Positions 3,689-61,592 of a DNA stretch of 64,000 nt are shown here, piece after piece. Within the stretch, counting starts at the first letter, position 1. Each line of letters starts with the position of its first letter. The notes under the pieces were generated by a model that was not told the DNA's origin, did not search any database, and was given only the letters and a program-made list of their open reading frames with translations. Source of the stretch: Deltaproteobacteria bacterium (lineage in GTDB: Bacteria > Myxococcota_A > Polyangia > Polyangiales > Polyangiaceae); NCBI GenBank assembly GCA_029571025.1, contig JAKPTJ010000044.1, positions 1 to 64,000 on the forward strand, written 5' to 3'. The position numbers and the translations under genes are program-made.

Positions 3689-3691
3689 GCC

Positions 3692-10228: not shown

Positions 10229-10237
10229 CCCGACGCA

Positions 10238-11566: not shown

Positions 11567-11595
11567 GCCATGGCCCGATCGAATTCGCCTGCCGG

Positions 11596-15598: not shown

Positions 15599-15703
15599 AG
15601 TGATTCTCACGAACCGAGAGGGACAGATGGCCATCAGCATGGGGCAAACGAGTTATGCGTCATGTTCCGAATTCGGGCTGGGGCTCGGACGCTCTGCAAC
15701 GAA

Positions 15704-32810: not shown

Positions 32811-32880
32811 GGGGGCAGCCTACGCCAATCCGCGCCCGATGCACGCGCCCTTTGATCTTCTATCGTAGCAGAGGTACTTT

Positions 32881-33156
32881 GTGCCCTGCCGATGTGGCGC
32901 TGGCTACGACATGTATGACGGAGGTCCCCGTTCGATGGGCGATAAGGAAAATCTCAAATACGAAGCTTCGAAGACAGACAAACGCAAGCAGAGCCTCTAC
33001 TTCCCAGAGGCCATGCTTCAAGAGATCAAGGAAGAGGCAGCCCGTCTCGACCGATCTCTTTCTTGGATCGTTCAACGAGCATGGAAAATTGCGCGCCCCG
33101 ATCTTCGCAAACTTCCAAGCGTCAATGAAATCCCCGACGACGAAACGGACGGCTGA
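32881..33156 (+). CDS. Small ribbon-helix-helix-like (CopG/Arc-type) protein
   Basis: KRKQSLYFPEAMLQEIKEEAARLDRSLSWIVQRAW has the beta-strand + two-helix pattern of RHH DNA-binding proteins. The start is likely the internal MGDKENL. Confidence 0.45.
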   Translation: MPCRCGAGYDMYDGGPRSMGDKENLKYEASKTDKRKQSLYFPEAMLQEIKEEAARLDRSLSWIVQRAWKIARPDLRKLPSVNEIPDDETDG

Positions 33157-33194
33157 TTGTTTGATCGCTCGAACGCAAAAATGAACCTCGTGAG

Positions 33195-33662
33195 GTGATG
33201 CCAAGACATCATGCGCGGTTCGACGTTTGCCTCGATTGGCCCCCGAAGAAATTGGCTTTCCCCATGGAGATGAGAACCATCAAAACGTGGTTGGACTCCT
33301 TCGGATGGCAATTTCTCACGATGGATGAAACGACCCTTCGTATCTTTCGCAACGAAAACGATGATGTCGATTTCTTTCTTCGCAACACCTCCCACTGGAT
33401 CCTGTTGAAGATCGTCCCCGCAATCCCCCCCACCCTCACCAAACCAAGCGATATCACCCGTCGATTGCTTGCCGTCAATCGCGACATGCGGCTCGCCAAG
33501 CATACCCTCACCAAAGAGGGTGATATCGCATTGGCTGTCGAACTACCCAAAGATTCTCTCGAACCCGCCGTGCTTCGAGATGCCATCGAACGAATGCACC
33601 GGTATATCAGCCATTACCGATCCTACTTGTCCATCGTTCCACCACCGTGGTTCCACTCCTAA
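33195..33662 (+). CDS. YbjN-like (putative sensory-transduction regulator/T3SS-chaperone-like) protein
   Basis: IKTWLDSFGWQF...FRNENDDVDFFLR...WILLKIV...LLAVNRDMRLAKHTLTKEGDIALAVELP follows the YbjN-domain pattern (tandem alpha/beta, two pseudo-repeats). The start is likely the internal MEMRT. Confidence 0.45.
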   Translation: MMPRHHARFDVCLDWPPKKLAFPMEMRTIKTWLDSFGWQFLTMDETTLRIFRNENDDVDFFLRNTSHWILLKIVPAIPPTLTKPSDITRRLLAVNRDMRLAKHTLTKEGDIALAVELPKDSLEPAVLRDAIERMHRYISHYRSYLSIVPPPWFHS

Positions 33663-35233: not shown

Positions 35234-36604
35234 CTAAATCGTTCGTCTTCGAGCAGAGACTCGAGTTCCCATATCCCTCTTTCCATCATCGCGTTTCGCA
35301 CGCCGAAATCGGGATGCCGATCCCATGAGCAGCAGCATACCCAACCCAAACCACCCGGCAGAATGAGATACGGGCGCGTAGGCACATCCACCAGACTCCG
35401 GTGGGCTATACACCGACCCCGCGCTCTTCTCCTTGAAACATACTCCTACCTCCGGCGCGCAGGAAAACCCGACCGGACACTCCCCCTGCAGACCACAGAG
35501 CGGCGAGCAGTAATTCTTGCCATCGTTCACACAACGAAGCCCCTCCGCACAATCCTCGGGTGCCGAGCACGGCTCGTTCATAAAACAATAGCCACTGCCC
35601 GCTCCCACGTCCCCGCACGTTTGTCCCGAAGCACAATTCGGCGCTGCCAGATCACACGACCGCGTGCAATACTGACCATGAAATCCCTGCACACACGTCA
35701 ACCCCTCGGGACATACCCCATCGTTGCATAACTCCAGCCTCGGCGTCCCATCGTATTGCTTCCCCTCCTCGCTCGTATACGTGGTTCCAGCGAGACGCAC
35801 GGCTTCATCGATCAATGCCTTGAACCGATCCGTGCGCGTCCAGATGTTGTCATCCCCCATACAGTTCAACCCCCGAGAGGTCACCCCTATCACCGCATGA
35901 TTCGCCGAAATCGCTGGTCCTCCCGAGTCTCCCTGGCAAATCGACTGCGTTCCCGTAAAATCCGCGTCCCCGGTACCCATGACGAACCGCAATACTTTCA
36001 CGCCATCCCGACGATATCGCACGCCCGAACTGTTCATATCCTTCGGGTCCGTCAAACCATAGCCCACCGCCGTGAATACCTCGCCAATCTCCGGTCCCTT
36101 GTTCACACGCACCCGCAGCGGAACGATCGGAATCTGAGACTGCGTCTCGCCCGTCACGTCATCCTTGTCCAACACAATCAAAGCCAAATCATGTCCACAC
36201 AAACTCGTCGAACCGTCGTGAACGATATGCTTACCTTTCGCCAACTTTCCTTGTGGATTGTGAGCAGCATCATACCCCCGCATGATCAACAGCGTCTGCG
36301 GATCCAAATCCGATATCACGTCTTGATAACAATCCACGTATTCCGTGGTCTTGGATACGCAGTGCCGGGCGGTCAGAACAACGTTCGGCGCGATGAGGGC
36401 GCCAGTACATAACCCCCCTCCAAAAATGCTCGTCCCGGCGTAGATCATCACCACGGCATCGTTTTCCTGTGGCGTATCCACAACGCCCCCCACAATCGGT
36501 TGCACCTGCTGCGCGACAGGCTCCAGTGACGGCTCGGAGGAACCACAGGCAAAACAAGCAACAGCATAAGACCCGAAACCCAAATATTTTACAAACCAAC
36601 GCAT
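35234..36604 (-). CDS. Secreted trypsin-like (S1) serine protease with Cys-rich spacer and C-terminal MYXO-CTERM-like tail
   Basis: Start ATG 36604 (MRWFVKYLGFGSYAVACFACGSS). LTARHCV (His), D, and CQGDSGGPA (Ser) catalytic triad motifs. Cys-rich EGF-like region. C-terminal GGCAYAP...WFGLGMLLLMGSASRFRRAKR sorting-signal-like tail. Confidence 0.8.
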   Translation of the reverse strand: MRWFVKYLGFGSYAVACFACGSSEPSLEPVAQQVQPIVGGVVDTPQENDAVVMIYAGTSIFGGGLCTGALIAPNVVLTARHCVSKTTEYVDCYQDVISDLDPQTLLIMRGYDAAHNPQGKLAKGKHIVHDGSTSLCGHDLALIVLDKDDVTGETQSQIPIVPLRVRVNKGPEIGEVFTAVGYGLTDPKDMNSSGVRYRRDGVKVLRFVMGTGDADFTGTQSICQGDSGGPAISANHAVIGVTSRGLNCMGDDNIWTRTDRFKALIDEAVRLAGTTYTSEEGKQYDGTPRLELCNDGVCPEGLTCVQGFHGQYCTRSCDLAAPNCASGQTCGDVGAGSGYCFMNEPCSAPEDCAEGLRCVNDGKNYCSPLCGLQGECPVGFSCAPEVGVCFKEKSAGSVYSPPESGGCAYAPVSHSAGWFGLGMLLLMGSASRFRRAKRDDGKRDMGTRVSARRRTI

Positions 36605-37071
36605 GCTCGACAGCCTAGTCGCACGTCGATACGGTGGCCACCACAACACCCATTATTCCTGGCAAATACCACCGTGATCGGTGCAATCCCTGCGCCCGTG
36701 CCATGCCACCAAACCCTTCGCGAAAATGTCGAATAGTCTCCCCCTTTTTCGTCCGCATGCACCAGCCCGTCATGCATCGGTACACGGATGCACCCGAGCG
36801 CCCACTCTCCTGTCGCAAGGCCGTGACTGCCCCGAGAGGTATGCGTCAAATGGCCGTAAAACCCAATACTGTCGTAGAAATCGGTCGCGCAACCCCGGGC
36901 CCGCAAAACGTCGCGTGAAAGATGGAGACGACAACCGAAAAATATCTCGTCCTGAACCTGATAAGGCCTGCCTCCCTGCAAGGACAGCATGCCTCCAAGC
37001 CTGATACAAGTTCGAGACGCCTCTCGAGTGTGCCCGTAATATCGATCCGTAATACAATCAAGCCCCGCCAC
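36589..37071 (-). CDS. Possible L,D-transpeptidase (YkuD) catalytic-domain protein or remnant
   Basis: FYGHLTHTSRGSHGLATGEWALGCIRVPMHD resembles the YkuD H-G-(T/S)...S-H-G-C-[IV]-R motif. Short ORF in an otherwise ORF-poor 650-nt gap. Low confidence. Confidence 0.3.
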   Translation of the reverse strand: MAGLDCITDRYYGHTREASRTCIRLGGMLSLQGGRPYQVQDEIFFGCRLHLSRDVLRARGCATDFYDSIGFYGHLTHTSRGSHGLATGEWALGCIRVPMHDGLVHADEKGGDYSTFSRRVWWHGTGAGIAPITVVFARNNGCCGGHRIDVRLGCRACVGL

Positions 37072-37243: not shown

Positions 37244-38572
37244 TCACACCCCGGAAAACTGCACTTCATGGAACCGCATCGAAGGGGTCCGTGCCCCACG
37301 ATACGGGTATGGATCCGAACCAAGCTCCGCCAAGGCTTGCCAGAACGTGAGGTGGTTGCCCGCAAGATTCATTTCGGCCACGGGTTTGACGATACGCCCG
37401 GACTCCACCCAATGCCCCCGGATGCCAATCGAAAAATCACCCGTCGCTGCATTGGAATTGCCCCCGGAAAACCCCGTGACGAGGATTCCTCTTCCCATCG
37501 TGCGCAACAATCCCGCAAGATCTTGTTTTCCTTTGGGAAATACTAGATTGCTCGTCTCCCCGACCGTCGGCTCCCACCCCAATTTGGAAGCGTAATAGGT
37601 ATCCAACAAATACGTTCGCAAAACTCCTTTTTCGAAAATCGGACGACGTCGGGTGCTCATCCCTTCGTAATCATACGTTCGAGAAGCCGCCCCCTTTGGC
37701 AGCAGAGGGTCATCGTCGATGTGAAGGAGGATCGACCCCACCTTTTCTCCGAGTTTACCCGACATATACGAGCGTTTTTGCTGCAAGGAGTTGCCCCCCA
37801 ACGGCCCCAATAGCCCCCCGAGCAAACGATCCGCCACCCGGTTCTCAATGATACAAGGATACTTACCACTCTTCCAAGGGGTTTCTCCAATCCCCGCCAA
37901 CGCCCTTCGCACCGCTTCTTTGCCCATGAGGTCCATCGAAGGAAGTTCGGCATAATGATGAGTAGCAGCGTAGTCTCCCCCGGAAGGTTTTCGATCCCCT
38001 TCGCCTCGAACCGTAGCGGAAGCCGAGCGAGCGAAAACCGAAGATTCCCGCTCGCCTTTCGTGCCCTGACTATCCCTCATCGCGCTCATCGTGTGGTAGA
38101 CACGCATCGCTCCCGTAGCCGAAAGGATGAGATCCGCGCCCTCGGCCTGCCGCATCGCTCGTTCCAGCTCCATCGCCTGCTTTTTTTGCGCCGCACCGTC
38201 GATGACACCAAGATTGTCCCTGTCCAACAGCAGAAGATCGCCCTCAAACCTCTCTTGGCAGCGCTCCAAAGGGGGAAGCTTGCGATGGGGATCCGGCTGA
38301 AGCACCTTGGTCATCGCCACCGACTCGGCCACGAAAAGCTCCATGGCTTCCGGACGCAAATCGCTTGTCGTGTGGGAAGAATAACGCCCATCGACAAATA
38401 AGGAGATGGAAAGGCCCTTGTGGACAGACTCACGCAAGCGGTCGAGCTTCCCATCGCGCCACTCCACACCACTTTCCCGCATGCGCCATACGCTTGCCCG
38501 CGCCGCCGCTGCGCCCTGCCGTTTCGCCAAAATAAGCGCATTTTCAACAAGTTGCATAAGCGTCGCGTTCAT
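37244..38572 (-). CDS. pmbA: PmbA/TldE-family protein (peptidase U62 partner subunit)
   Basis: Start ATG 38572 overlaps the tldD stop (ATGA). MNATLMQLVENALILAKRQGA...VEWRDGKLDRL... is a typical TldE/PmbA N-terminus. The C-terminal domain is conserved. It lacks HExxxH and has no signal peptide. Confidence 0.8.
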   Translation of the reverse strand: MNATLMQLVENALILAKRQGAAAARASVWRMRESGVEWRDGKLDRLRESVHKGLSISLFVDGRYSSHTTSDLRPEAMELFVAESVAMTKVLQPDPHRKLPPLERCQERFEGDLLLLDRDNLGVIDGAAQKKQAMELERAMRQAEGADLILSATGAMRVYHTMSAMRDSQGTKGERESSVFARSASATVRGEGDRKPSGGDYAATHHYAELPSMDLMGKEAVRRALAGIGETPWKSGKYPCIIENRVADRLLGGLLGPLGGNSLQQKRSYMSGKLGEKVGSILLHIDDDPLLPKGAASRTYDYEGMSTRRRPIFEKGVLRTYLLDTYYASKLGWEPTVGETSNLVFPKGKQDLAGLLRTMGRGILVTGFSGGNSNAATGDFSIGIRGHWVESGRIVKPVAEMNLAGNHLTFWQALAELGSDPYPYRGARTPSMRFHEVQFSGV

Positions 38573-40143
38573 GCTCCCCTCCCACCCACGGAAATACCAC
38601 TCACTTTTAAGGTCGGTAATCCAAAACCCACCGGAACGCCCTGCCCATCCTTGCCACAATAGCCAGCCCCGGTGATATGCTTCAAATCGTTGCCGATCAT
38701 CGCCACCTTCTCGAGAACGTTTGGGCCATTGCCGATGAGGTTCGCATCCTTGATCACATGGGTCAGTTTCCCATCTTCGATGAGCCTTCCGTGTTTCAAA
38801 TAGAAGGTAAAATCCCCGGCACCAATCATCACCTGTCCGTTGGTGAAGATCTCGGCGTAAATCCCCTTTTTGACGGAAGCGATGATCTCCTCCGGGCTTT
38901 CTTTCCCCGCAAGCATATAAGTGTTGCGCATTCGCGGCACCGGTGGATAACAATAGGATTCACGACGTCCCGAGCCTGTACGGGGCGCCTTGAAGTGCTG
39001 CGCTGAAATACGGTCGTGCAAATAGGTGCGTAATACGCCGTTTTCCACCAATACCGTCTCCTCGGTGGGATGCCCTTCATCGTCGATGTTGAGCGAACCA
39101 CGCTGTCGTCCAGTGCCCCCATCCACGATGGTCACACCCTCCGGAGCGATTCTTTTTCCAATCCGGTTCGCATAAATCGAAATCCCCTTGCGATTGAAAT
39201 CCGCTTCCATCCCGTGCCCAATGGCCTCGTGCAAGAGCAGTCCTGGATTTCCTGGCCCAAGGACGACCGGCATGTCTCCCACCGGCGGAGACACGGCTTC
39301 AAAAAGCAACACCGTATTGCGCGCTGCCGTGGTTCCCGTGTCGTCGATATGAGCTGGCGTGAGAAAACGAATCCCATCGCGCTGGGCGAAGGTCCAGTAC
39401 CCCGTCTCAGTTTTTCCCTTGTTTTCTCCTACACAGGACACGGAAAGGACGCCCATGGGCCGCTCGTCGGCGACCAGCAGCCCCTCGGAATTGGCGATCA
39501 GGATGTGGGAGGTCTCATCTTGAAGAGCCACCGTCACCTTGATGATTCGCGTATCATGATTTCGCGCCGCTTTTTCCGCCCGCTGAACGATCGGAAGCTT
39601 GCGGTCGATGCCGACTTCGGTCCACGGCGTTTCCACGGTGTAGCGAGACACGACGATACGAGGCGTGAGGGTTATCGAACGCGGGCTGGAAGGGCCATCG
39701 GCCACCGCGGAAGCCATGTCCGCGGCTTCGAGCAAGGCCCCGGGCGTCAGGTCCTCCGTAAATGAAAATCCGGTCGTATCCCCTTGAATCACGCGAATGC
39801 CCGCGCCAAGACCCACCTCGGAATAGGCCCTATTGACCTCGCCATCTTCCATACCCACCCAATGCGATACCCTGTGCTGCAAAAATATTTCCGAAAAAGA
39901 AGCCCCCCGCGACAACGCCCGGGATAATACCTTGCGTATCAATCCCTCATCGACACCGAAAGCATCAAAATGACTCACGCTCACCGCTCCCGAATCCTTG
40001 CCCGGTTCCTGCAAACTCGGTGACTTGGAAGTCAAACGCTGGATTTCCGTGCGACCACAACCCGCCACGAAAGGCAGCGATACGGTAGCCGCACCGTAGC
40101 CCATGACTTGCAATAAGTCCCTGCGATCCAGAGAAGTGGACAT
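38569..40143 (-). CDS. tldD: TldD-family metalloprotease with Tat-type lipoprotein signal
   Basis: N-terminus MSTSLDRRDLLQVMGYGAATVSLPFVAGCG has a twin-Arg motif (RRDLL), an h-region and lipobox VAGC. HEAIGHGMEADFN is the TldD HExxxH metal site. C-terminal GxC...G core. Confidence 0.85.
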   Translation of the reverse strand: MSTSLDRRDLLQVMGYGAATVSLPFVAGCGRTEIQRLTSKSPSLQEPGKDSGAVSVSHFDAFGVDEGLIRKVLSRALSRGASFSEIFLQHRVSHWVGMEDGEVNRAYSEVGLGAGIRVIQGDTTGFSFTEDLTPGALLEAADMASAVADGPSSPRSITLTPRIVVSRYTVETPWTEVGIDRKLPIVQRAEKAARNHDTRIIKVTVALQDETSHILIANSEGLLVADERPMGVLSVSCVGENKGKTETGYWTFAQRDGIRFLTPAHIDDTGTTAARNTVLLFEAVSPPVGDMPVVLGPGNPGLLLHEAIGHGMEADFNRKGISIYANRIGKRIAPEGVTIVDGGTGRQRGSLNIDDEGHPTEETVLVENGVLRTYLHDRISAQHFKAPRTGSGRRESYCYPPVPRMRNTYMLAGKESPEEIIASVKKGIYAEIFTNGQVMIGAGDFTFYLKHGRLIEDGKLTHVIKDANLIGNGPNVLEKVAMIGNDLKHITGAGYCGKDGQGVPVGFGLPTLKVSGISVGGRGA

Positions 40144-40759
40144 GGATTTGCCTCATTTTCCAAGGGTTTTCCCTGGTCTACCGGAGAACCTTCGAAGACG
40201 CCAACGGAAAAAGTCTCCACCCGTCATCTTGGCCGATCCCGCCGGGACTTCCATGCTTTTTCGAGCATGTGCCCTGCCAACGCAACACCCCCTTGACGCG
40301 TTCCCATGGTGGTTGACTACACCCAAAACGACCGCTGCAGCCCCAAGCGCCCACCACGTCGATACTGCATCATAACGAGTTCACCGCATTGACATACTTC
40401 CTTGTTGAGCCTTTTCGACAGGTTGGATCTCGACCAGGGCGGGCTCGTGTTGCGCCATCACGACTCTGTCGGCGATGCCGAGGTTTTTCCCCGCAGCGGC
40501 GTCGATAGCCGGATACTCCCACGCCACAAGACTCCCGAGCCATGGACGAGCACAGATTCATATTCATCAATTATTTCCATTGCTTACACATTAATCACCC
40601 ATGCCGATGCGTTCAACCTTGCGGAAACGAAAGCCTGTCCCGCTCATTCGCTTTGAAACCGCGTCATCGGGTTGTCTTGCAACCAGATAGTCGCCGGAAC
40701 TCTCCACTCCCGCACAACTCGACCTTGCTCCCATCACCGCATCACTGTATCCTTGGAGA

Positions 40760-42610: not shown

Positions 42611-45600
42611 CTAGATACCGTACTCAGCGCGCTCGATCAGCTCGAGCTGCATCTGCTTGTTCAGCGTGACGAAATAGGCATTATACCCGGAAATCCGCAC
42701 GAGCAAATTGCGATAGTTCTCCGGATGAACCATCGCGTCGCGAAGGGTATCGGACGTGACTGCGTTGAGCTGCATTTGCATGCCCCCCAGCGAAAAATAG
42801 GACTTCACGTACGCGGCCATCGTGTCGACCGTCCGCTCCCGCGACTCATGGGCCGATGGCACCACCTTCACATTGAAGGCAATATTGTTCGGCATATTGG
42901 CCGGATCCAACCTGGCCACATCACGGATATTGTCCAATAGGTTCGGCGATGCCCCCGGTGTGGGAGTCAGACCTGGCGTAAATGGCTTGCCCGCCAACCG
43001 CCCCGACGGCAAAGCTCCAGCCAGCGTGCCGTAAGATACATGCGTAGACATCGACCAGAACCCAGCCGCATAACGGCCTCCCCGGTAGTTGGTATACCGA
43101 TCATACAGCGACTGCACCATCTTGGTAATGCGGTTGCCCATCGCCACGGCGTCTTCGTTGCCCGAGCCAAAAAGCGCTACTTTGTGGGATACCTGCGCCA
43201 ATAACAGCGGATCGTTGGCGAAATTCGTGTCCACTGCCCGCTTGAGGTCAGCGAATGACACAACTCGTTGCTCGAATACGAGCTTCTGGATCACCAACAT
43301 CGAATCGATGACGTCAACCAGCCCGATGCACGCAGCCCCAGAACTGTTGTACCTGGCTCCCCCATACGTAACATCCTTTCCCGATGCAATGGTGCCCTCG
43401 ATCAGGCTGGACAGCAGTGGCGTCGGACGAAGCTGCTGATGCGCCTTACCCAACATCTCGTTGTACTCGATCGATCGGTCGACCAGAAAAGCCACCTGCT
43501 GCCGGTAAGCCTCGAAAAACTGGTCGAAATTCGCAAAATCGCCAGCCTCGATCGAACCGGTAGATGGTCCCACCTTCCAATCCATCAGCGGATGCCAGCC
43601 GTCGTTCAACGCCATCTCCAGCGCCGCCACCAGACTGAGCATCTGGAAATTGGTATGGCCGATATGCTTTCCCGACAGCGTCGGCTCCACACACCCGGTC
43701 GCCGCCCAATCACGCACGTCACGTACCTCATAGCCATAGCGGCTCAAGGCCTTCCCCACGACCTCGTCGTTATGCAACGACGGAGTCGCCGCCGTGATCA
43801 GATTGACCTCGCAAAGACGCTTCAGGTACGCTTGGCTGTTTTTGCCCAGATGGAATCTAGCGTTCACATTTGGGTCGCGAAGACTAAGGATTTCAGTGAC
43901 TTTCAAGAATATATACGTCATATCGCAGACCGCGTCTTCGCCTTCGGGGGTCACCCCGCCCAGCGTGATCGCTTGATCCGAGGAACTGCCACCAAAGTAG
44001 TAGTTGGCCACGTCGGGAGTCAGCGGCAAGTGGTCCGTGCAGCGCAGCATCAAGTCACCCACCAGTTCAATCGCACGTTTGGTGTAGGCCCGCCGCTGCT
44101 CCAAAGTCTCCAACTTGCCCATATCGGCCTCGAAATATGGCTGCAGCCACTGGTCCAACCGGCCCATCGACAGCCCGGCATTGGTGCTTTCCATATGCAG
44201 CCCCACCCACGTGATCCACACCGAATTCACCGCCTCATCGAGCGTGCGGGCTGGCCCCACGACCACCTGGCTACAGATCTCGGCCAGTCGGCGCAACTCA
44301 GCCGCCCGACTGGGGTCGCTTTCCCGCTCCGCCTCATACGCCGCTTGCGCCGCCAAATGCCGAGAATAGGTGCCCAACCCCTCCAGCGCGAGAATGAATG
44401 CCCGCCGGGTGGTATTACGCTCCTCATCCGAGTCGGCAGCCATCGCTTCCTCGATCTCGGCGATGATGCCGGACGTTCCCAGCCGCAACATCTTGGGGAA
44501 ATCCGGGATCGTGTGTGAGATGGTTGCGGTTTTCCAGTCGAAATAGACCGCAAATCGGTCGTCGATACGCTGGCCCAAAGGCGAACGGTAGTGGTCTCGC
44601 ACCCATTCCTTGAAGTTGCGACGGCTCCAATAGGGGAATACATCCTTATGCAGCAATTCTCGGGTCTCCTCCGAGACACCGTAAGGATTCAGAGGTCGAT
44701 GCGGCACCGTCAGCAGCTCGCCCCAGATCATCGTCCCATGCCCCTCCGGATAGACAACCACACCGGTTTCCTTGGTAGTTGTCGTGCCGGCAATGAGGTC
44801 GTTGGCATGGATGATCGGCCGACGATTCTCCATCACATATTGATAGGCCAGGGCTTTGCGCAGCACCGGGTGCCAGGGCTTGCCCTTCGAATCTCGCTCG
44901 AAACCGTGTTTTCGATGCCATTCGGTCAATAGTTTCGGCAATTCTGGGCATACCTCGGCGTCATGGTCGAGGTGCCGGTTCAAAAACTTAGCTAGCCGCG
45001 GGAAATCCTTCAAACTGAAATCACGCAAGTAGGGGTCCTCGAGATATTTCACACCCGGATCGACTTGCGAAGTCGCAATGCGGTAGTCCGCACGCTCGCG
45101 CATCTGCCGGGCCAGATCAGGATTCGTGGCACCGGCTTGTGTGCGACGATCAGCGTTATCGTTACGAAGATCTTTCGCCAGATTCTTGATTTGCTGGCGG
45201 AAAAGGAGTCGGGAAATCAGATATACGAACAGGTTTAGCGATGATGTATTGCCATCGACGTAAAAGTCGTTGCGCAACGTCATGAGGACCTGCTCGGTTG
45301 GCGTGGCCGTGAGGAATTTCGTAACTTCAGCGTCGGATTTGAATACCAGCACGACATCGACGGCCTCGGGAATGCGGCCCATCGCCTTTGCTTTGCCATC
45401 TCGAAACCGGATTCCGGTGCGCACGGAGCCAGAGCGGGTGCGAATGCCGACCACAAGATCGATCCAACCGTCCTTGATACGCAATTCGTCACGCAACCTG
45501 GGGTGCCAGGTGTAGAGCTTGGCCATGAGACCGAGCAGCCCACGCACGATCAATTGTTGCGGACTGTGGCGCGCCGCATCGCTCACCGCCGGGTCCGGAT

Positions 45601-45718
45601 GAAATGGGCGCATGTCCAGCGGGTCCACCGGGGGCAGCTTCACAGCGGTCGGTTCGGCCATGGTCATGGCATGCTCGGTTCCGGAAGAAGTGGACGAAGA
45701 GGTGTTGGGGAACGTCAT
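42611..45718 (-). CDS. Glycyl radical enzyme (PFL-like superfamily) with Cys-x-Glu active-site loop and about 250-aa N-terminal extension; substrate unknown
   Basis: C-terminal glycyl radical motif VRISGYNAYFV (RVSGY-type). Thiyl loop WAATGCVEPTLSGKH (Cys-Val-Glu as in dehydratase/lyase-type GREs; PFL has Cys-Cys). 1035 aa. The ATG overlaps the activase stop (ATGA). Confidence 0.9.
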   Translation of the reverse strand: MTFPNTSSSTSSGTEHAMTMAEPTAVKLPPVDPLDMRPFHPDPAVSDAARHSPQQLIVRGLLGLMAKLYTWHPRLRDELRIKDGWIDLVVGIRTRSGSVRTGIRFRDGKAKAMGRIPEAVDVVLVFKSDAEVTKFLTATPTEQVLMTLRNDFYVDGNTSSLNLFVYLISRLLFRQQIKNLAKDLRNDNADRRTQAGATNPDLARQMRERADYRIATSQVDPGVKYLEDPYLRDFSLKDFPRLAKFLNRHLDHDAEVCPELPKLLTEWHRKHGFERDSKGKPWHPVLRKALAYQYVMENRRPIIHANDLIAGTTTTKETGVVVYPEGHGTMIWGELLTVPHRPLNPYGVSEETRELLHKDVFPYWSRRNFKEWVRDHYRSPLGQRIDDRFAVYFDWKTATISHTIPDFPKMLRLGTSGIIAEIEEAMAADSDEERNTTRRAFILALEGLGTYSRHLAAQAAYEAERESDPSRAAELRRLAEICSQVVVGPARTLDEAVNSVWITWVGLHMESTNAGLSMGRLDQWLQPYFEADMGKLETLEQRRAYTKRAIELVGDLMLRCTDHLPLTPDVANYYFGGSSSDQAITLGGVTPEGEDAVCDMTYIFLKVTEILSLRDPNVNARFHLGKNSQAYLKRLCEVNLITAATPSLHNDEVVGKALSRYGYEVRDVRDWAATGCVEPTLSGKHIGHTNFQMLSLVAALEMALNDGWHPLMDWKVGPSTGSIEAGDFANFDQFFEAYRQQVAFLVDRSIEYNEMLGKAHQQLRPTPLLSSLIEGTIASGKDVTYGGARYNSSGAACIGLVDVIDSMLVIQKLVFEQRVVSFADLKRAVDTNFANDPLLLAQVSHKVALFGSGNEDAVAMGNRITKMVQSLYDRYTNYRGGRYAAGFWSMSTHVSYGTLAGALPSGRLAGKPFTPGLTPTPGASPNLLDNIRDVARLDPANMPNNIAFNVKVVPSAHESRERTVDTMAAYVKSYFSLGGMQMQLNAVTSDTLRDAMVHPENYRNLLVRISGYNAYFVTLNKQMQLELIERAEYGI

Positions 45719-46647
45719 ATCGCCTCCAGGCCGAGATCAACGAGATGTTGGCGCAGTCGGGCTGCCAGGCCGCGGGGCAGCCATGTCCGCATAATATCTA
45801 ACTCAGTGAATTTGTTAGCAATTCCCAATTGAGGACCCTTGTCTACCCAGGTTGGATTGTAATCCAGCAACCGGACTTGACGAACCCCCACATCGAGCAG
45901 AAATCGGCCGATCGCCGTCAGGTTTTCTTCCGTCGCGGTGATATCCGGGACCAGCGGAATGCGCGGCTGCAGATCGAACGTCCCGGCACGGGATAGCTCC
46001 ACCAACCGCTTGAAATTGGCCAGGATCCGCTCGTTCGGCACCCCGCAATACGCACGGTGGTCCTCGGAATCCATGAGTTTCAGGTCATAATAGATGGCGT
46101 TCAGATGCGGCAGCACCCCTCGTTCGAACGGCTCCCACCGAAAGTATCCGGCAGTCTCTAAAAGGGTGTGTATACCTTCGGCACGACAGGCCGCGGCAAG
46201 TTCCCCAAGCAGCTCCATCGCTAGAGTCGGCTCTCCCCCGGAAAAGGTGACGCCGCCTCCGGAGGCTTCATAAAAGGGCTTATCCGCGCGAAGCTTGGCC
46301 ATCAACTCGGCGACGTTGGCTGGCTTACCCACCTGGCGCAAAGCCCCCGATGGACAGACCGGTACGCAGTCGAAGCATCTGGTGCAGGCCCAACGATTGA
46401 TGCCGACACCAGGCATGATGGCGTCCTCGGGGCAGTGGCCACGACATCGGGTACAGCCGGAAATACAATCCGCAACATTAAATGACAACTCAGCGTTTTG
46501 ACTCAAACTTTCCGGGTTATGACACCATCGGCACGACAGCTTACAGCCCTTGAAAAAAACCACCGAGCGAATGCCCGGACCGTCGTCAAGCGCGTTGCCT
46601 TTCACCTCGAGCAGCAACGGTTCGTGCTTCGTCAGAATGGCCGTCAT
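45715..46647 (-). CDS. Glycyl-radical-enzyme activating enzyme (radical SAM, with two auxiliary ferredoxin-like [4Fe-4S] motifs)
   Basis: CKLSCRWCHNPE is the Cx3Cx2C radical-SAM cluster. CISGCTRCRGHCP and CTRCFDCVPVCP are ferredoxin-type Cys motifs. A glycine-rich SAM motif (SGGEP) is present. Confidence 0.9.
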   Translation of the reverse strand: MTAILTKHEPLLLEVKGNALDDGPGIRSVVFFKGCKLSCRWCHNPESLSQNAELSFNVADCISGCTRCRGHCPEDAIMPGVGINRWACTRCFDCVPVCPSGALRQVGKPANVAELMAKLRADKPFYEASGGGVTFSGGEPTLAMELLGELAAACRAEGIHTLLETAGYFRWEPFERGVLPHLNAIYYDLKLMDSEDHRAYCGVPNERILANFKRLVELSRAGTFDLQPRIPLVPDITATEENLTAIGRFLLDVGVRQVRLLDYNPTWVDKGPQLGIANKFTELDIMRTWLPRGLAARLRQHLVDLGLEAI

Positions 46648-46662
46648 CGCTGCTATCCCTCC

Positions 46663-47343
46663 TCACTGCAGGGTTGGCTGCTCACGCGCAGCGGTGGGGT
46701 TCAGAGCGAGAATCTCATGGACAACGCTATTTTTGATCCGTGTGATCATGCGCTCTTTCAGAGAAGCCGGGTCAGGATGCATGTAGTCGATGAGGTGGTT
46801 GTGGATGCCTGCGATATAACCATGTAACTGCGTCCACAGGCGAACCGTGATGAAGTACAGGTCATCCCTTGCTGGCGGCGTGCCGGTGCAGGCAGCGATG
46901 GTAGTGGCAGTCAGGCGGAGACTGTCGAGCGCCGTCTCGAGTTCGACCCGAGCCGTGTTCTCCATCGCCGTGCCCACGTAGTCGTCATACTTGGGCACAT
47001 GCCAGGTGAACATCAACCCGTATAGGTGTGTATTGTCGAAGGCAAACGTCACGTAGGCATCGATCAGCGCGTCGAGCCGTTCGAATGGGTTGGTATGGGG
47101 TTCGGCCGCTTTGGCAAGAGCCTGACCGAGGCTATGAAAGCCGCGGGTGAGCAGACCGAGGTACAATTCGTCTTGGGAGGCGAAGTAGTTGTAGACCGTT
47201 TTCGCGGCGATGCCCAGGCGAGCGCCGAGTTTGCGCATGGAAAAACCTTGCCAACCTGCCTCCACGAACAAGTTCAATGCCTCGTCCAAGATCTGGTTTC
47301 GCACGGCTTCGACCTCGTTTTCCGAACGACGGCGTCTTGGCAT
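46663..47343 (-). CDS. TetR/AcrR-family transcriptional regulator
   Basis: N-terminal HTH ILDEALNLFVEAGWQGFSMRKLGARLGIAAKTVYNYFASQDEL. 15 nt upstream of the activase gene on the same strand. Confidence 0.85.
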   Translation of the reverse strand: MPRRRRSENEVEAVRNQILDEALNLFVEAGWQGFSMRKLGARLGIAAKTVYNYFASQDELYLGLLTRGFHSLGQALAKAAEPHTNPFERLDALIDAYVTFAFDNTHLYGLMFTWHVPKYDDYVGTAMENTARVELETALDSLRLTATTIAACTGTPPARDDLYFITVRLWTQLHGYIAGIHNHLIDYMHPDPASLKERMITRIKNSVVHEILALNPTAAREQPTLQ

Positions 47344-47857
47344 GGGGGCTCCTTCCGGTGCGGTTCGTGGATGTAATGCTGTTACAATAACACCGTTACC
47401 TTAACGTCGCAACCGACTGATCGGCATGTATTTCGGCTCTGAGCACGATTTTGGGAAGCCCCCTAACGCCGCGACTGTGCAAGCGCCGACTGCACGGGGC
47501 TGCCGCGTCTGCTACAACCCATATTATGCTGAATCGACGAACGTAAGCCGTGCGCGCCTTGGTTCGATGCGTTGGTGATTCGCCATCGCGTGAGCAGGGA
47601 AGCTGGAAGGACGGTTTTCCGCTGGAGGTGAGCGAGTGTTGATCTGATTTATCCGCTACGTGGCCCATCCCCCGCGGAACCACCTCCCCACAACCCATGG
47701 CCCTTCGAATCACCCCGATAGACCAACGTCAATACCACCCAATACACCGCCCTAAGCGTGTATATTGTTGTATTTATTATAGTTTATCAATACCCCGACG
47801 TTCGATGGAAACGACACGGTCACCGGAGCGGATTCTCTTGCTCTCTATTGATCGGAA

Positions 47858-48793
47858 TCAACTTCCGAACGCAATGAGTTCGCTTTTACGAGCTTTGCGG
47901 GAACGTCCGTCCTGGTCCACGATGAGCACTCCTTTGGCATCGATACTCTGCACCCGGTACAACTCCCACACCGACCCTTTTCTCGGACGAGCCAGAACCA
48001 TTTGCCCCGGTTGCACATCCTGCGGCTTTTTCGGTTTCGGCGTGACCTCACGCGCTTCCCGGATCGAAAGCGGTGACTTATCGTCCCACGAAACATGCAC
48101 GTTCGTGGGCGTGATGCGGCGAATCCTTCCTCCACGCCAGGAGCCGTCTTCGTGTCTTGCCACCACTTCATCGCCTGGTTTTGGCTCCCATCCCGGCGGT
48201 TGATACGGTCGTGTTTGCTGGTTCATGGCCGCGAAAAAATCTCTATGTTCGGACAATTCCTTGTGTTTTTGACCGATCCGCCGCCGCGTCTCCTCCCGTA
48301 GCCCCACCACATCGCCCTCCGCTAGGTCATACGTCTTGCCCTGCGCATCTTCCACCTCTACCCGTCCCGAAGCGACCTGCTTGATGAGACAGCCCACCCA
48401 GGTATCCGGGGCAGTTTTGCACGCCGCAAAATCGTTGATGGTTACCGCGGCCGCACGAGAACCCAGCCCATACACCCGGTCGTCGGAAACCCTGATCTTC
48501 GTTTTTCGGCCGCCATATTCCACCGTGATCGGGTCGCCGTCCTTGACCACACGGCCTTGCACAAACTGCCCATCTTCTTTTTCCACCAACACATTCTCGC
48601 CCATTGACGGTCTCGAAGGTTGTTGCACCGGAGCAGGCGCCGACACCGTCGACGACGCCGAGGCTACCCCTTGGTCGGATGGTTCACGATGGGAGCACCC
48701 CATCGAAGGAAGGAATGCCCAACCTAGCAAGAAACCAACCGCGAAACGCCACGCCATGGGCGCCGACGATAGTGCAGGTTGCCCCAGAGGCAA
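47858..48793 (-). CDS. Lipoprotein with three Tudor/SH3-like beta-barrel repeats (hypothetical)
   Basis: Signal + lipobox (FLPSMGCSH). Three repeats of about 60 aa, each with the G(D/Q)xVxAR...W pattern (GDEVVARHEDGSWRGGRIRRI; GQMVLARPRKGSVWELYRVQSI). Confidence 0.5.
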   Translation of the reverse strand: MPLGQPALSSAPMAWRFAVGFLLGWAFLPSMGCSHREPSDQGVASASSTVSAPAPVQQPSRPSMGENVLVEKEDGQFVQGRVVKDGDPITVEYGGRKTKIRVSDDRVYGLGSRAAAVTINDFAACKTAPDTWVGCLIKQVASGRVEVEDAQGKTYDLAEGDVVGLREETRRRIGQKHKELSEHRDFFAAMNQQTRPYQPPGWEPKPGDEVVARHEDGSWRGGRIRRITPTNVHVSWDDKSPLSIREAREVTPKPKKPQDVQPGQMVLARPRKGSVWELYRVQSIDAKGVLIVDQDGRSRKARKSELIAFGS

Positions 48794-52995: not shown

Positions 52996-53355
52996 ATGCC
53001 TCGCAAAGATCCAGGGTCATACGGCTCAGCCCAAGGCGAGTACCATGATGGAGAAATGATGACGGACACTAGAATTTTATGGGACTTCGATGTGCGCGTT
53101 CGAGACCGGAACTTGAAAACCGGTCGTCTGAAGAAAGACGAAGTGGATAGGTACTACGACAACCTCGTGGACGTGACCAACAACGTCGATGCGATGGAGG
53201 CGCGTCAACCCACATTGCCGACCGCGGAAGACAAGCACGAGGAAGAGCCTTCGGCAGTCCAAGGGTCACCGTCGATGGGATACGCCCCCGCGGCTCCCGG
53301 ACTACCGATGATGCAGCCTATCATTCCTCACGCCAAGAACGAGGACGATTACTGA
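52996..53355 (+). CDS. Small hypothetical protein
   Basis: ORF only. Acidic. Lies between the kinase and the DUF1844 gene on the same strand. Confidence 0.3.
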   Translation: MPRKDPGSYGSAQGEYHDGEMMTDTRILWDFDVRVRDRNLKTGRLKKDEVDRYYDNLVDVTNNVDAMEARQPTLPTAEDKHEEEPSAVQGSPSMGYAPAAPGLPMMQPIIPHAKNEDDY

Positions 53356-53380
53356 GTTACGGGCCCTATGGGAGGCGAGC

Positions 53381-53668
53381 ATGGCGGACGAAAAGGCACA
53401 ACAAGCCACTGAACTTCCAAAGACGGATTTTTCCACGTTCGTGTTGTCGTTGAGTCATTCCGCGCTCGTGCATCTCGGGGACGCGCCATCCCCCGACGGG
53501 GTTGCGCGAACGCCCAATCTCGTTTTGGCCCGACAAACCATTGATTTGCTCGAGATTCTTTCGGAAAAAACCAAGGGCAACCTCACGGGAGAAGAAGAAC
53601 GTCTGCTCGAGCATATTTTATATGAACTGCGGATGCGTTTCGTCGAGGTCGCCAAGGAGAAGTCGTGA
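53381..53668 (+). CDS. DUF1844-like small protein
   Basis: FSTFVLSLSHSALVHLG...LARQTIDLLEILSEKTKGNLTGEEERLLEHILYELRMRFVE matches the conserved DUF1844 pattern. Its stop overlaps the htrA GTG start (GTGA). Confidence 0.5.
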   Translation: MADEKAQQATELPKTDFSTFVLSLSHSALVHLGDAPSPDGVARTPNLVLARQTIDLLEILSEKTKGNLTGEEERLLEHILYELRMRFVEVAKEKS

Positions 53669-54846: not shown

Positions 54847-55604
54847 TGGACGATAATATCCGCCATGAGGAAGGCTCTGCTGGGAGCGTAGGAGGGGAGC
54901 AAGCTACGACCGTGGTGAATACCCAATCGGTGGTTGCGTCCAACCGTGAGCAACGAAGGGCGGAAGCCGAGGAAGATCGTGTACTCATCGAAGCAGCGCA
55001 GAAAGGTGACGTGGCCGCATTTCGAGCCCTGGTGGAAAAGCACCAGCGGCGAGTATTCTCGATTGCCCTTGGCATCGTGCGTGACGAAAACGACGCGCGA
55101 GAAATTTCTCAAGAAGCCTTTATTCGGGTGTACCGCGGATTGGACCGGTTCCAGGGCGGGTCGAGCTTTTTTACCTGGCTTTATCGAATTGTCACCAACT
55201 TATCCATTGACCTCATTCGTCGGCCCGGCAGGCGCGACGCGGAGCTTGTGGAAGATCGAAAGGTGTATGACGTCGCGGATGGGAGTCTCGAACCTTTCGT
55301 GGCCCGCCTGGAGGGGGAAGACCCTCTGCGAGTCGTGCGTCGCCGAGAAATTGCCGAACGTTTGCAGGAGGCGCTTGACGCATTGCCGCCCTACCACTTG
55401 GGCGTCATTCTGATGAGAGAGGTTGAAGGCATGTCGTACGAAGAAATGGCCGAGGCAATGGGCGTGTCCAAGGGCACGATCATGAGCCGTCTATTTCACG
55501 CACGACAGAAACTCCAGCGAGCACTTCGGGATTGCTATGAAGAGGAAATCGAATCCATCGACGAGCCGATGAGCGCGTCGGGAAAGCATGAGGCTCAACC
55601 GTGA
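54846..55604 (+). CDS. ECF (sigma-70 group 4) RNA polymerase sigma factor
   Basis: The ATG at 54846 shares its A with the htrA TGA. Region 2 FRALVEKHQRRVFSIALGIVRDENDAREISQEAFIRVYRGLDRFQG...FFTWLYRIVTNLSIDLIRR. Region 4 HTH MSYEEMAEAMGVSKGTIMSRLFHARQKL. Confidence 0.85.
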   Translation: MDDNIRHEEGSAGSVGGEQATTVVNTQSVVASNREQRRAEAEEDRVLIEAAQKGDVAAFRALVEKHQRRVFSIALGIVRDENDAREISQEAFIRVYRGLDRFQGGSSFFTWLYRIVTNLSIDLIRRPGRRDAELVEDRKVYDVADGSLEPFVARLEGEDPLRVVRRREIAERLQEALDALPPYHLGVILMREVEGMSYEEMAEAMGVSKGTIMSRLFHARQKLQRALRDCYEEEIESIDEPMSASGKHEAQP

Positions 55605-56236
55605 ACAACCGCGCCAACAATAGCGATGGCCGTGGGGAACTGTCTTCGGATAGCGTGACTTCCCACGATTTGATGATGTTCGCGGACGGGGAGTTGGATG
55701 CGCAGCGTGAGGCTGCCGTAGCCTCGTATCTCCGGGAGAATGAGACTGGCCGTGCGGTTGTGTCCACGGTGTGGGAGATGGGGGCGAGGATACGGGAACT
55801 GCAGGATCGCAAGGCGATCGACGCCGGTGCGGACGGGATTGCTTCTTTGGTGATGGCTCGCATCGAGCAGGAGGCGTCTGCACCGCGGAAAGAAAATGTC
55901 GTCCCGTTGGTAACGTCGGAGCGTCGTGCCGTGGGGTTTGGCCCTGTGGTGGTGGGGGGATTGGCGTTGGCGGCTGGGGTGGCGTTGTTGGTGTGGCGGC
56001 TGGTGGGGATGGATTTGACACAGCCTATCCCTGAGAAAACGGCCGGGGCTTTGAGCAGTGAGAAGCCGGTATCGGTTTCCGCCTTGTCGACGGAAGACGA
56101 TCCGGAGCCTGGGGTGTCGGTGGATTCGATTGATTTCGGTGCTCGAACGGGCACAATTTTCTATGTTCCTAACGGTGCAGGTTCTACGACGACGGTCGTT
56201 TGGCTCACGGATGATGAGGTCGGAGGCAACCCATGA
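55601..56236 (+). CDS. Anti-sigma factor (single TM, N-terminal sigma-binding region)
   Basis: GTG start overlapping the sigma stop (GTGA). N-terminal LMMFADGELD...ASYL pattern as in RseA/ChrR-like anti-sigma N-domains. TM VVVGGLALAAGVALLVW. Confidence 0.6.
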   Translation: MNNRANNSDGRGELSSDSVTSHDLMMFADGELDAQREAAVASYLRENETGRAVVSTVWEMGARIRELQDRKAIDAGADGIASLVMARIEQEASAPRKENVVPLVTSERRAVGFGPVVVGGLALAAGVALLVWRLVGMDLTQPIPEKTAGALSSEKPVSVSALSTEDDPEPGVSVDSIDFGARTGTIFYVPNGAGSTTTVVWLTDDEVGGNP

Positions 56237-56826
56237 CCCGAAGCGGATACACTGTATTTGGACTCGCCCCTCGGTGGATCGCGCTGTGTGGGGTGGGATT
56301 GATGGTTTCGGCCAGTTGGTGGGCTCACGCGCAGCAGCAACCAGCTTCTGAACCGCCAGTGGCTGAGCCGATGCAGGCCGATGGGGGGACCGCACCGCAA
56401 CCGCAGGTTCCTTCCGAGATTCTTGTATTGCATGCCACCAACACGGGCGGCGGAATCGATCCCGAACTGCAGCATCTCAAACAGCTACAAAAACCGCCAT
56501 TTTCCGCCTACGACACGTATCGTTTGCTGCATCGGCATTCGATTGTGTTGCGGTTGCAGCAACCAGATTCCACGCAACTTCCCAATGGCAGAACGCTGCG
56601 AACCGTGTTGAAAGCGGTATTGCCGGAAGAACGATACCGGGTAGCGGCGAGCATCAGTCGACCACCGCAAGACAAGGATGGCGGATACTTACCTTTGCTC
56701 GAGGTAACGGCGAAAAGTGGGGAGCCATTTTTCGTAGCGGGGCAGAGCTATCGGGGGGGGATTCTCGTGGTGGGCATCCAGGTGGGAAAAGCTACGAAAA
56801 AAGACAAGCCTCCGGCGGATAAGTGA
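56233..56826 (+). CDS. Periplasmic hypothetical protein, last gene of the sigma/anti-sigma operon
   Basis: ATG overlaps the anti-sigma stop (ATGA). Signal peptide LMVSASWWAHAQQQ. No known motif. Confidence 0.5.
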   Translation: MTRSGYTVFGLAPRWIALCGVGLMVSASWWAHAQQQPASEPPVAEPMQADGGTAPQPQVPSEILVLHATNTGGGIDPELQHLKQLQKPPFSAYDTYRLLHRHSIVLRLQQPDSTQLPNGRTLRTVLKAVLPEERYRVAASISRPPQDKDGGYLPLLEVTAKSGEPFFVAGQSYRGGILVVGIQVGKATKKDKPPADK

Positions 56827-56879
56827 ACGTAAGGGCTTCGTATTCGGACAGCGCTCGTGCTAGACAGTTGCCTCTTCGA

Positions 56880-56956
56880 GCGCCCGTAGCTCAGTTGGAT
56901 AGAGCAGCGGCCTTCTAAGCCGCGGGTCACTGGTTCGAATCCAGTCGGGCGTGCCA
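56880..56956 (+). tRNA. tRNA-Arg (anticodon TCT), CCA encoded
   Basis: GCGCCCGTAGCTCAGTTGGATAGAGCAGCGGCCTTCTAAGCCGCGGGTCACTGGTTCGAATCCAGTCGGGCGTGCCA. The acceptor stem pairs (G1-U72 wobble). Anticodon loop CTTCTAA. T-loop TTCGAAT. Confidence 0.85.
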
Positions 56957-57372
56957 CGGTCATTCCATCATCAAGAGCGTGACGACGATGGCGAGCCTGT
57001 GGGGTTGCGTCACAAGGGCCAGCGCAACAATGTCCTAGCGAGCCGTACGTTGGGCGACGGCTTCCATGATGACGTGCTTCGTTGGTTCCACCGATCGAAC
57101 GCGCCCCTCGATGACCGACGCAACAGGCAGCGTCGATGGCGCTTCTCTTGGCGCTCACCCACAGTGGCAAAAAAACTTTATATTACTCATAGTTACACAG
57201 ATCACGGTCGAGACCATCGACGACGATTCTGTATGACAAACACCACGGGCGGAGGCGGCAGCCCAGGGGTTTTCTCGATGCAGCCGGTGGCGGAAGGCCC
57301 TCGACTTGGGCGAAGGCATAGGGAGCACGGACGAAGCGAGAGCCTGGTTTTGCCGTTCTTTCGTTCGAGACC

Positions 57373-60302: not shown

Positions 60303-60498
60303 GTCGAAAGGTTACCCTTTCCTTCGTCGGTTTTCCGCAATGATGCGACCTTCGCGCAGAAGGTTCAGCTTTCCACGCTAGCGTCTGCCCAGTCGAGAAG
60401 ATCAATCAATAATCAAGAAACAACATAGATTTACAGCATTTCGACTCTTGCTAGGCGATAAGCTCGTCGAACGACGAAGCACTCGTCCCACCGGTTCA

Positions 60499-61566: not shown

Positions 61567-61592
61567 GGCTTTTCCGGATTCGATGTGAAACG

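Follow-up and report, generated by a model that had tools for sequence, protein, structure and literature searches.

A glycyl radical enzyme of eliminase type with a fused SCP2-fold domain and a predicted TetR operator in a Polyangiaceae genome

The 64,000-nucleotide stretch analysed here (the window; positions 1 to 64,000 of the forward strand of contig JAKPTJ010000044.1, assembly GCA_029571025.1) belongs to a deltaproteobacterium of the Polyangiaceae. Three open reading frames (ORFs) lie head to tail on its minus strand, coding for a TetR-family repressor, a glycyl-radical activating enzyme (activase) and a glycyl radical enzyme (GRE), in that order. As judged from sequence, this GRE combines eliminase machinery with a fused lipid-carrier domain of the SCP2 fold, a private active-site signature and a defined predicted TetR operator. 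The unit may be a stand-alone catabolic or modifying module that is induced by its substrate and centres on a glycyl-radical 1,2-eliminase, to which the SCP2 domain would present a hydrophobic or amphiphilic substrate; we put the probability of this reading at about 0.55. No prior description of the SCP2-GRE architecture or of the function of this family was found, while the sequences themselves are already present in databases as 'pyruvate formate lyase family'.

The repressor gene is located at 46663..47343 (226 aa), the activase gene at 45715..46647 (310 aa) and the GRE gene at 42611..45718 (1035 aa); these and the features below are on the minus strand. The TetR-activase spacing is 15 nt, and the activase stop and the GRE start overlap as ATGA, with a GGAGG 4 nt 5' of the overlapping GRE ATG. 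Because a database protein identical to the GRE is annotated from Met20 (1016 aa) and relatives begin near Met18, residues 1-19 and the ATGA coupling are likely, not certain; starting at Met18 or Met20, the protein would count 1016-1018 aa. The original prediction, made from the sequence alone, had described this three-ORF unit with its 15-nt gap and ATGA overlap in a 'myxobacterial-type' genome. The layout was recovered as described, with the GRE start codon likely rather than certain, and the GRE sequence is identical to a protein of a metagenome-assembled genome (MAG) labelled Polyangiaceae. That prediction had also given the activase two extra ferredoxin-like clusters. The translation indeed contains, besides the radical S-adenosylmethionine (SAM) motif C35-x3-C39-x2-C42, the ferredoxin-type motifs C61/65/68/72 and C88/91/94/98, and the protein exceeds the cut-off of TIGR02494 (247 bits versus 174). 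The gene adjoining the GRE thus supplies the cognate radical-SAM activase of the GRE superfamily.

Catalytic core and class assignment

The GRE contains a PFL-like barrel domain (43028..44974, residues 249-897; PF02901, 4.9e-154) followed by a glycine-radical domain (42668..42982, residues 913-1017; PF01228, 1.1e-22). Active-site positions were mapped via HMMER alignments, and their conservation was measured in 118 family sequences. Both motifs reported in the original prediction can be read in the translation. The RVxG[FWY]-type glycyl motif within the Gly_radical domain is RISGY (residues 1008-1012), with the predicted radical-bearing Gly1011 at 42686-42688; R1008, S1010, G1011 and Y1012 are invariant, and position 1009 is Ile in 117 of the 118 sequences. 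The thiyl loop Cys676-Val-Glu678 (43685..43693), part of TGCVEP at residues 674-679, has its Cys-x-Glu (CxE) invariant in all 118, and Cys676 aligns with Cys433 of glycerol dehydratase (GD). Equally invariant (118/118) is His402 (44513..44515), which aligns with the general-acid His of GD (His164), of propanediol dehydratase (PD, His166) and of HypD (His160). The CxE motif is kept by all GRE eliminases and isomerases, and the deprotonating and general-acid roles proposed here for Glu678 and His402 are those of Glu435 and His164 in GD (PMC13450708).

The ten-stranded barrel with its Cys loop is indicated by PF02901 and by Foldseek, which places many GREs at a target-normalised TM of about 0.9. 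The best structural matches are propanediol and glycerol dehydratases (TM 0.89-0.91, target-normalised; 27-28% identity). The sequence matches to solved structures are all weak and close to one another. HMMER yields 375 bits for Archaeoglobus fulgidus PFL2, 356 for GD, 355 for PD, 344 for CutC, 304 for HypD, 244 for IslA, 185 for MasD, 157 for benzylsuccinate synthase (BSS) and 94 for pyruvate formate-lyase (PFL). Based on the CxE motif, the equivalent of GD His164 and the diol dehydratases as best structural matches, an assignment to the eliminase type and not to the PFL type is supported, in line with what had been predicted. PFL itself is further set apart by its two adjacent Cys residues, against the single Cys in TGCVEP, and by a TIGR01255 score of 108 versus a cut-off of 994.

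At the positions and model scores compared, none of the characterised eliminase subfamilies accommodates the enzyme. Its scores with the NCBIfam equivalog models of CutC, HypD and the sulfonate enzymes amount to a third to half of their cut-offs; as judged by these scores, it is no member of the HypD or sulfonate-enzyme (HpsG, HpfG, IslA) groups (NF043068, 356 versus 1100; NF048011, 340 versus 1000; NF048009, 338 versus 1000). The score with TIGR01774, the broad PFL2/glycerol-dehydratase subfamily, is 500 versus a cut-off of 678. The residues that could be mapped match no GD, PD or CutC specificity set; the original prediction, which had held that an exact match to the active site of a characterised subfamily would make this a known function, is therefore not refuted.

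The comparison with the dehydratases of Clostridium butyricum (GD, 1r8w) and Roseburia inulinivorans (PD, 5i2g; see also 9rco) shows how far the likeness goes. Shared are the barrel, the glycine-radical motif, CxE, the general-acid His, GD Phe333 (Phe575 here) and a three-cluster activase. Instead of GD His281, Ser282, Tyr339 (PD Phe344), Asp447 and Tyr640, the window GRE has Ala514, Gly515, Asp581, Asn690 and Trp888; it also adds 250 aa of SCP2 domain and linker as well as TetR control, and lacks microcompartment or diol-pathway genes. In its sequence context, N513-A514-G515 replaces G-H281-S282 of GD, S578-S-S-D581-Q582 stands against Y-P-M-Y339-Q of GD, Phe344 of PD and Phe395 of CutC, and H688-T689-N690 against W-H-D447 of GD. 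These three segments, together with H685, F887-W888-S-M890-S891 and H893, are near-invariant in the family: at each mapped active-site position at least 111 of the 118 sequences agree, and most positions are invariant. Such a near-invariant polar set argues for one defined head group. In addition, the change from His281-Ser282 to Ala-Gly leaves less side-chain bulk beside the substrate and would make room for a chain substituent beyond the reacting diol, which suggests substituted glycerols or long-chain diols.

In the AlphaFold2 model, several loops near the active site (residues 390-400, 575-580, 913-921 and 1006-1014; about 42677-44551 of the window) have a predicted local distance difference test score (pLDDT) below 50, against values above 90 for the barrel around them. 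They include the FGGSSS loop and the glycine-radical loop, and could reflect either real mobility or a shallow alignment.

The same active-site residues bear on the possibility that the enzyme, in analogy to choline trimethylamine-lyase (CutC), is a C-N lyase; it would then release ammonia or an amine from an amphiphilic amino alcohol, for instance a sphingoid base or a lipid head of ethanolamine type. As a member of the same eliminase class, CutC likewise has CxE; its Thr502 corresponds to Thr689, its Q-T-G-L-S-L-G segment resembles N-A-G-L-S-M-G of the window GRE, and the invariant Asp581 occupies the position at which other eliminases have a substrate-packing aromatic (GD Tyr339, CutC Phe395). 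A class III aminotransferase and an ACAD-like gene also accompany the GRE in four loci. However, the choline-binding Asp216 of CutC is His402 here, as in the dehydratases, Phe395 is Asp, the TIGR04394 score is 367 versus a cut-off of 1050, and an aminotransferase accompanies the GRE in a minority of loci, so that this reaction appears quite unlikely. Some CutC proteins carry a long N-terminal extension as well (9f3w, 1150 aa), which shares no similarity with the SCP2 extension, the alignment beginning only at query residue 269.

The best match by sequence among the solved structures is A. fulgidus PFL2/PflD (2f3o, E 7e-111, 30% identity). It shares GCVE and the His, and has the small polar Q-A-T-N, against S-S-S-D in the window GRE, where other eliminases have aromatics. 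It differs in its length (776 aa), the lack of an SCP2 domain, an Asp at the position of Asn690 and Q-A where the window family has A-G. PFL2 is still called a GRE of unknown function, debated as a glycerol dehydratase or an alkylsuccinate synthase (PMC13450708). Following the second proposal, the window GRE might be a fumarate-adding, alkylsuccinate-synthase-like hydrocarbon activator to which the SCP2 domain delivers alkanes or alkenes, which would fit the occurrence of the family in Smithella, Desulfatibacillum and Desulfosudis oleivorans MAGs. SCP2 domains bind hydrophobic molecules. The family nevertheless keeps the eliminase CxE motif and His, and the scores for MasD (185 bits) and BSS (157 bits), representing the X-succinate synthases (BSS, MASS), are far below those for the dehydratases (355-375). 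Foldseek likewise gives a TM to BSS of 0.77-0.79 versus about 0.9 for the dehydratases (target-normalised). No conserved small ORFs that could encode beta or gamma subunits accompany the GRE in the clustered loci, and the family also occurs in lineages without a hydrocarbon link (Spirochaetota, Leptospirales, Actinomycetota, Polyangiaceae). Hydrocarbon activation is therefore considered very unlikely.

Likewise, a glycyl-radical decarboxylase that is akin to the arylacetate decarboxylases and acts on a hydrophobic carboxylic acid would agree with a hydrophobic substrate and with the Glu two residues after Cys, which decarboxylases keep too. The scores of 259 bits for indoleacetate decarboxylase and 173 bits for 4-hydroxyphenylacetate decarboxylase, versus cut-offs above 1100, the remote PDB match (2y8n, E 2.8e-31) and the lack of a small subunit make this extremely improbable.

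A mechanistic parallel is offered by the YbiW/PflD-type anhydro-sugar-phosphate C-O lyases ('GRE isomerases'), which have CxE in common with the window GRE but for which it scores lower (246-318 bits). These enzymes cleave an ether C-O bond beta to a hydroxyl via a ketyl radical (PMC13450708), the chemistry that an alkoxy-leaving-group version of the window GRE would use. They differ in acting on soluble sugar phosphates and in having no SCP2 domain.

The SCP2-fold domain and its family

According to the original prediction, the GRE carries an N-terminal extension of about 250 aa, for which a structural model was advised. About 250 aa do precede the PFL-like domain (PF02901 starts at residue 249), and modelling resolves them into an SCP2 lipid-binding fold (45134..45580, residues about 47-195) and a helical linker to the GRE core (44975..45133, residues about 196-248, or 190-248 with the long helix). 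As delineated from secondary structure and invariant alignment columns, the linker carries the invariant motif DFPRL...H...EVCPELP. The full-length model reaches a predicted TM score (pTM) of 0.86, with a pLDDT of 86-95 for the SCP2 block. The domain shows the SCP2 alpha/beta fold, a five-stranded sheet packed by helices, and yeast and insect SCP2 proteins appear among the matches listed for it. When the full-length GRE is compared with the PDB by Foldseek, the TM is 0.69 query-normalised and about 0.9 target-normalised; therefore no solved GRE covers the SCP2 domain. A microcompartment-targeting role of the extension was rejected, since no shell genes were seen among the scanned ORFs and the extension holds a folded domain of 140 aa and not a short amphipathic peptide.

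Pfam PF02036 has no match in the window GRE at E <= 0.01, and only two proteins recovered by a profile of the domain match it weakly (E 0.005-0.009). The profile itself has 261 matches among 1.84 billion representative proteins. All seven of the longer matches examined carry a PFL-like domain directly after the SCP2 domain; a few stand-alone matches of about 150 aa (E about 1e-9) were also found, of which P0235, P0245 and P0257 lie on contigs of 1-1.7 kb. The domain is kept across phyla, with 34-74% identity to that of the window, and essentially only on this GRE, which argues for a tie to catalytic function. Given the SCP2 fold, the expected substrate is probably hydrophobic or amphiphilic and not small and soluble. 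Other SCP2-domain proteins, the SdsA1/YjcS-type alkylsulfatases and UbiJ, have unrelated partners (a metallo-beta-lactamase-fold sulfatase and the ubiquinone synthesis complex, respectively), and no sequence similarity between their SCP2 domains and that of the GRE could be detected.

A search of 5.8 billion proteins returned hundreds of relatives of about 1000 aa, all under generic names, with 93-98% query coverage including the N-terminus. Relatives of the N-terminal region were found in 358 genomes in a scan with one genome per species. The best 80 of these are all MAGs, and every family member traced comes from a metagenome bin and is generically named. The best 80 come from Desulfobacterales, Smithellaceae and Syntrophaceae, Desulfosudis and Desulfatibacillum, Spirochaetota and Leptospirales, anaerobic Actinomycetota, Acidobacteriota, Bacteriovoracaceae, Bradymonadales and Phycisphaerae. 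Full-length identity to the window GRE ranges from 52 to 84% over at least six phyla; in the N-terminal region it is 82% and 74% for the two nearest loci (L001 and L002) and 52-63% for the next four (L003-L006). The closest relatives are in Actinomycetota and Vicinamibacteraceae bins and not in myxobacteria, which suggests a lateral, cross-phylum spread of the module. Two loci contain tandem full-length SCP2-GRE genes, namely L044 (3908-9899; 990 and 989 aa) in a Geothermincolia bin of the Actinomycetota and L060 (1865 onward; 1018 and 1018 aa) in a Syntrophaceae bin.

Predicted TetR operator and gene neighbourhood

The repressor belongs to the TetR family (PF00440, 1.5e-11; TetR_C_33, 2.9e-11), and its nearest solved relatives are Mycobacterium tuberculosis FasR (6o6p, E 2.8e-9), KstR and Mce3R, which are sensors of acyl-CoA or steroid-CoA. 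A scan for inverted repeats upstream of the gene gave no repeat. By aligning the TetR upstream regions across loci, a predicted operator was located at 47374..47405, within the interval 47344-47860 in which a binding site had been expected. It consists of the dyads TAACGGTGTTA (47388-47398) and TAACAGCATTA (47374-47384), and an inverted GTTA-N3-TAAC half-site extends it to 47405. The site TAACGGTGTTATTGTAACAGCATTA (47374-47398) has no second match in the 64 kb of the window, where chance predicts 0. In the relatives, two TAAC-N3-GTTA dyads 3 nt apart lie directly 3' of a TTGACA -35 box, and across the related loci the operator sits 40-57 nt before the TetR start codon. Of the 33 TetR upstream regions, 31 have one dyad core or more and 24 have the tandem pair, compared with a background rate of 0.2 per kb.

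The operator overlaps a putative sigma-70 promoter (47384..47412) with a -35 box TTGCGA (47407-47412), a 17-nt spacer and a -10 box TATTGT (47384-47389). This promoter was deduced from its position relative to the conserved TTGACA just upstream of the operator of the relatives and falls below the threshold of a consensus promoter scan. TetR control of the unit, one half of the earlier suggestion, is thus supported by a conserved tandem palindromic operator predicted over the repressor's own promoter; as for the other half, induction by a small-molecule substrate, the SCP2 domain shifts the expectation to a hydrophobic or amphiphilic one. The intergenic region 5' of TetR (47344-47857) is unusually long (514 nt), with an AT-rich stretch around 47750-47790 and a 105-aa ORF (47396-47713) that is probably spurious. 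No RNA element of Rfam was found in these 514 nt, and no terminator was found 3' of the GRE.

To evaluate the gene context, ORFs were crudely called and then clustered in 81 loci, i.e. 80 related loci and the window. The activase adjoins the GRE in 50 related loci and an orthologous TetR does so in 33 of the 81, in the order TetR-activase-GRE or TetR-GRE-activase. Among the 42 loci with adequate flanks, the activase is within 4 kb in 27, and TetR or the operator is present in 21. Since antisense ORFs sometimes displaced the real gene, these counts are lower bounds. The window represents the minimal, three-gene form of the module. NAD(P) oxidoreductases are encoded within or next to the operon in about 21 of 72 loci, and at least in L009, L029 and L071 between activase and GRE. 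They are classical short-chain dehydrogenases/reductases (SDRs), extended SDRs (best models OleD, HpnA and SdmB) and Zn-dependent alcohol dehydrogenases (Zn-ADHs). Less frequent among the recurring neighbours are acyl-CoA synthetases, alpha/beta hydrolases, FabK-like genes and ACAD-like genes. A carbonyl-forming GRE would agree with the oxidoreductases, and a hydrophobic substrate with the lipid-type neighbours, yet the neighbourhoods are heterogeneous and this evidence falls short of proof.

The richest locus is L012, on a Smithellaceae chromosome (58-15730). It comprises, in order, an alpha/beta hydrolase, an ACAD-like gene, a small weak SCP2-like protein, a thiamine pyrophosphate enzyme, a Zn-ADH, a class III aminotransferase, a stand-alone SCP2 protein (PF02036, 3e-5), an APC permease, the SCP2-GRE, the activase and an FAD_binding_2 oxidoreductase, and may be a fuller version of the pathway. 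The stand-alone SCP2 protein has no detectable sequence relation to the fused domain. In three Actinomycetota bins (L044, L066 and L073), a divergent ACAD-like gene and a class III aminotransferase are found upstream; downstream, L066 and L073 contain a PIG-L-family deacetylase, MgtC, a PfkB kinase and a ferredoxin-domain protein.

Within the window, the unit is flanked by genes of housekeeping type (PolA, a Ser/Thr kinase, TldD/PmbA, proteases) or without a Pfam domain. As had been stated before, neither shell nor transporter genes were seen nearby. No microcompartment shell domain was detected in protein-family scans of most ORFs of at least 90 aa between 23.8 and 63 kb; the remaining, shorter ORFs of this range, among them those at 25254-26123, 29259-30101, 32860-33662, 36589-37071, 40103-40375, 52996-53668 and 54934-58592, lay outside these scans, which formally leaves room for a short shell gene. 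Within about 10 kb of the GRE unit, none of the scanned ORFs codes for a transporter. The window's only lipid-uptake-type gene encodes a FadL/TodX-type outer-membrane channel for hydrophobic compounds (61593-63146), 14 kb from the GRE. It belongs to a three-gene minus-strand run (58617-63146) together with a GlpA-like FAD glycerol-3-phosphate dehydrogenase with a BFD [2Fe-2S] domain and a Glyco_trans_1_3 glycosyltransferase.

Two further observations concern other genes of the window. An 829-aa ORF (26725-29214, minus strand) has a major-vault-protein (MVP) shoulder domain (PF11978, 1.8e-27) and a weak vault repeat, with no sequence match to any solved structure, eukaryotic MVP included; it may encode a divergent bacterial vault-like protein. 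Two adjoining TldD/PmbA-family metallopeptidase genes (37244-40143, minus strand) share 385 nt as listed, and because of this overlap the start of the downstream ORF (37244-38953, TTG) is probably further in.

Proposed reaction and significance

Based on these sequence and model data, the reaction is most likely that of a dehydratase or C-O lyase. TetR, bound to the tandem TAAC-N3-GTTA operator overlapping the -10 box, would repress tetR, activase and GRE until a hydrophobic effector frees it. Equipped with a radical-SAM cluster and two auxiliary [4Fe-4S] clusters, the activase would then place the radical on Gly1011, from where it would move to Cys676. The SCP2 domain might hold the hydrophobic tail of an amphiphile, or extract it from a membrane or micelle, while the polar hydroxylated head enters the barrel. 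There, the Cys676 thiyl radical would abstract a hydrogen from the carbinol carbon of the substrate, and Glu678 would deprotonate the carbinol hydroxyl to give a ketyl radical. Protonation by His402 would let the adjacent leaving group, either a hydroxyl or the oxygen of an alkoxy/acyloxy group, depart, and the product radical would regain a hydrogen from Cys676 to yield an aldehyde or ketone. As substrate, a long-chain 1,2-diol, a monoalkyl- or monoacyl-glycerol or a comparable lipid head group may be considered. The NAD(P) oxidoreductase adjoining the GRE in many relatives may process the carbonyl product or make the substrate.

Several points weigh against a lipid-presenting eliminase. With its polar residues, many of them His and Ser, the conserved pocket could accept a small soluble polyol or a phosphorylated compound as well. 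SCP2 folds also fill non-carrier roles, and the TetR resembles lipid sensors weakly and mainly through its DNA-binding domain. No oxidoreductase, hydrolase or transporter gene occurs at the locus in the window itself; beyond the three core genes, no gene is universal among the loci, and the neighbourhoods converge on no single pathway. The amino-acid-type permease and the aminotransferase of the Smithellaceae locus point to a small amine, not a lipid.

The enzyme could accordingly be an ordinary dehydratase of a small diol or polyol, in which the SCP2 domain might tether the enzyme to a membrane, mediate oligomerisation or activase docking, or form a lid on the channel. The propanediol and glycerol dehydratases as closest structures and the polar pocket residues agree with this, and so do the APC-type permease, PfkB kinase and PIG-L deacetylase near the GRE in some loci. 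On the other hand, GD His281, Ser282, Tyr339 and Asp447 are replaced by Ala, Gly, Asp and Asn, the TIGR01774 score stays below its cut-off (500 versus 678), no microcompartment or 1,3-propanediol-type pathway genes were seen, and the SCP2 domain, retained across phyla, is practically confined to this GRE. A small-molecule dehydratase thus has some chance of being correct but is rather unlikely, and an eliminase served by its SCP2 domain is preferred.

A narrower version of this preferred reading would make the enzyme an anaerobic C-O lyase or dehydratase of ether lipids or long-chain diols, acting on a free vicinal-diol or beta-hydroxy-ether head. The SCP2 domain would extract the alkyl chain of monoalkylglycerols from bacterial or archaeal membranes, of long-chain 1,2-diols or of alcohol-ethoxylate-type surfactants. 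This version is unlikely as it stands; if true, it would give the first lipid-acting GRE and a missing oxygen-independent route for the breakdown of ether-linked lipids in sediments and digesters. To our knowledge, the breakdown of ether lipids, long-chain diols and surfactants in these habitats is poorly explained at the enzyme level, and all characterised non-hydrocarbon GREs act on small soluble metabolites. A 2026 review of the GRE superfamily lists no SCP2-fused or lipid-acting GRE (PMC13450708). A literature search on such enzymes gave nothing relevant, and one on Hxd3 or Smithella GREs turned up only succinate synthases.

GREs are oxygen-sensitive, and an anaerobic or micro-oxic capability of the host is a reasonable expectation from the presence of this gene, which would add evidence for anaerobic metabolism in some uncultured myxobacteria. 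The module is small, consisting of a repressor with its operator, an activase and the enzyme, and is thus directly testable, while the TetR/operator pair could be used as a reporter for the inducer and thereby for the substrate. The family is common in anaerobic digesters and sediments (Smithellaceae, Desulfobacterales), and a tightly conserved clade with a fused lipid-carrier domain would extend the radical chemistry of GREs to amphiphiles or lipids.

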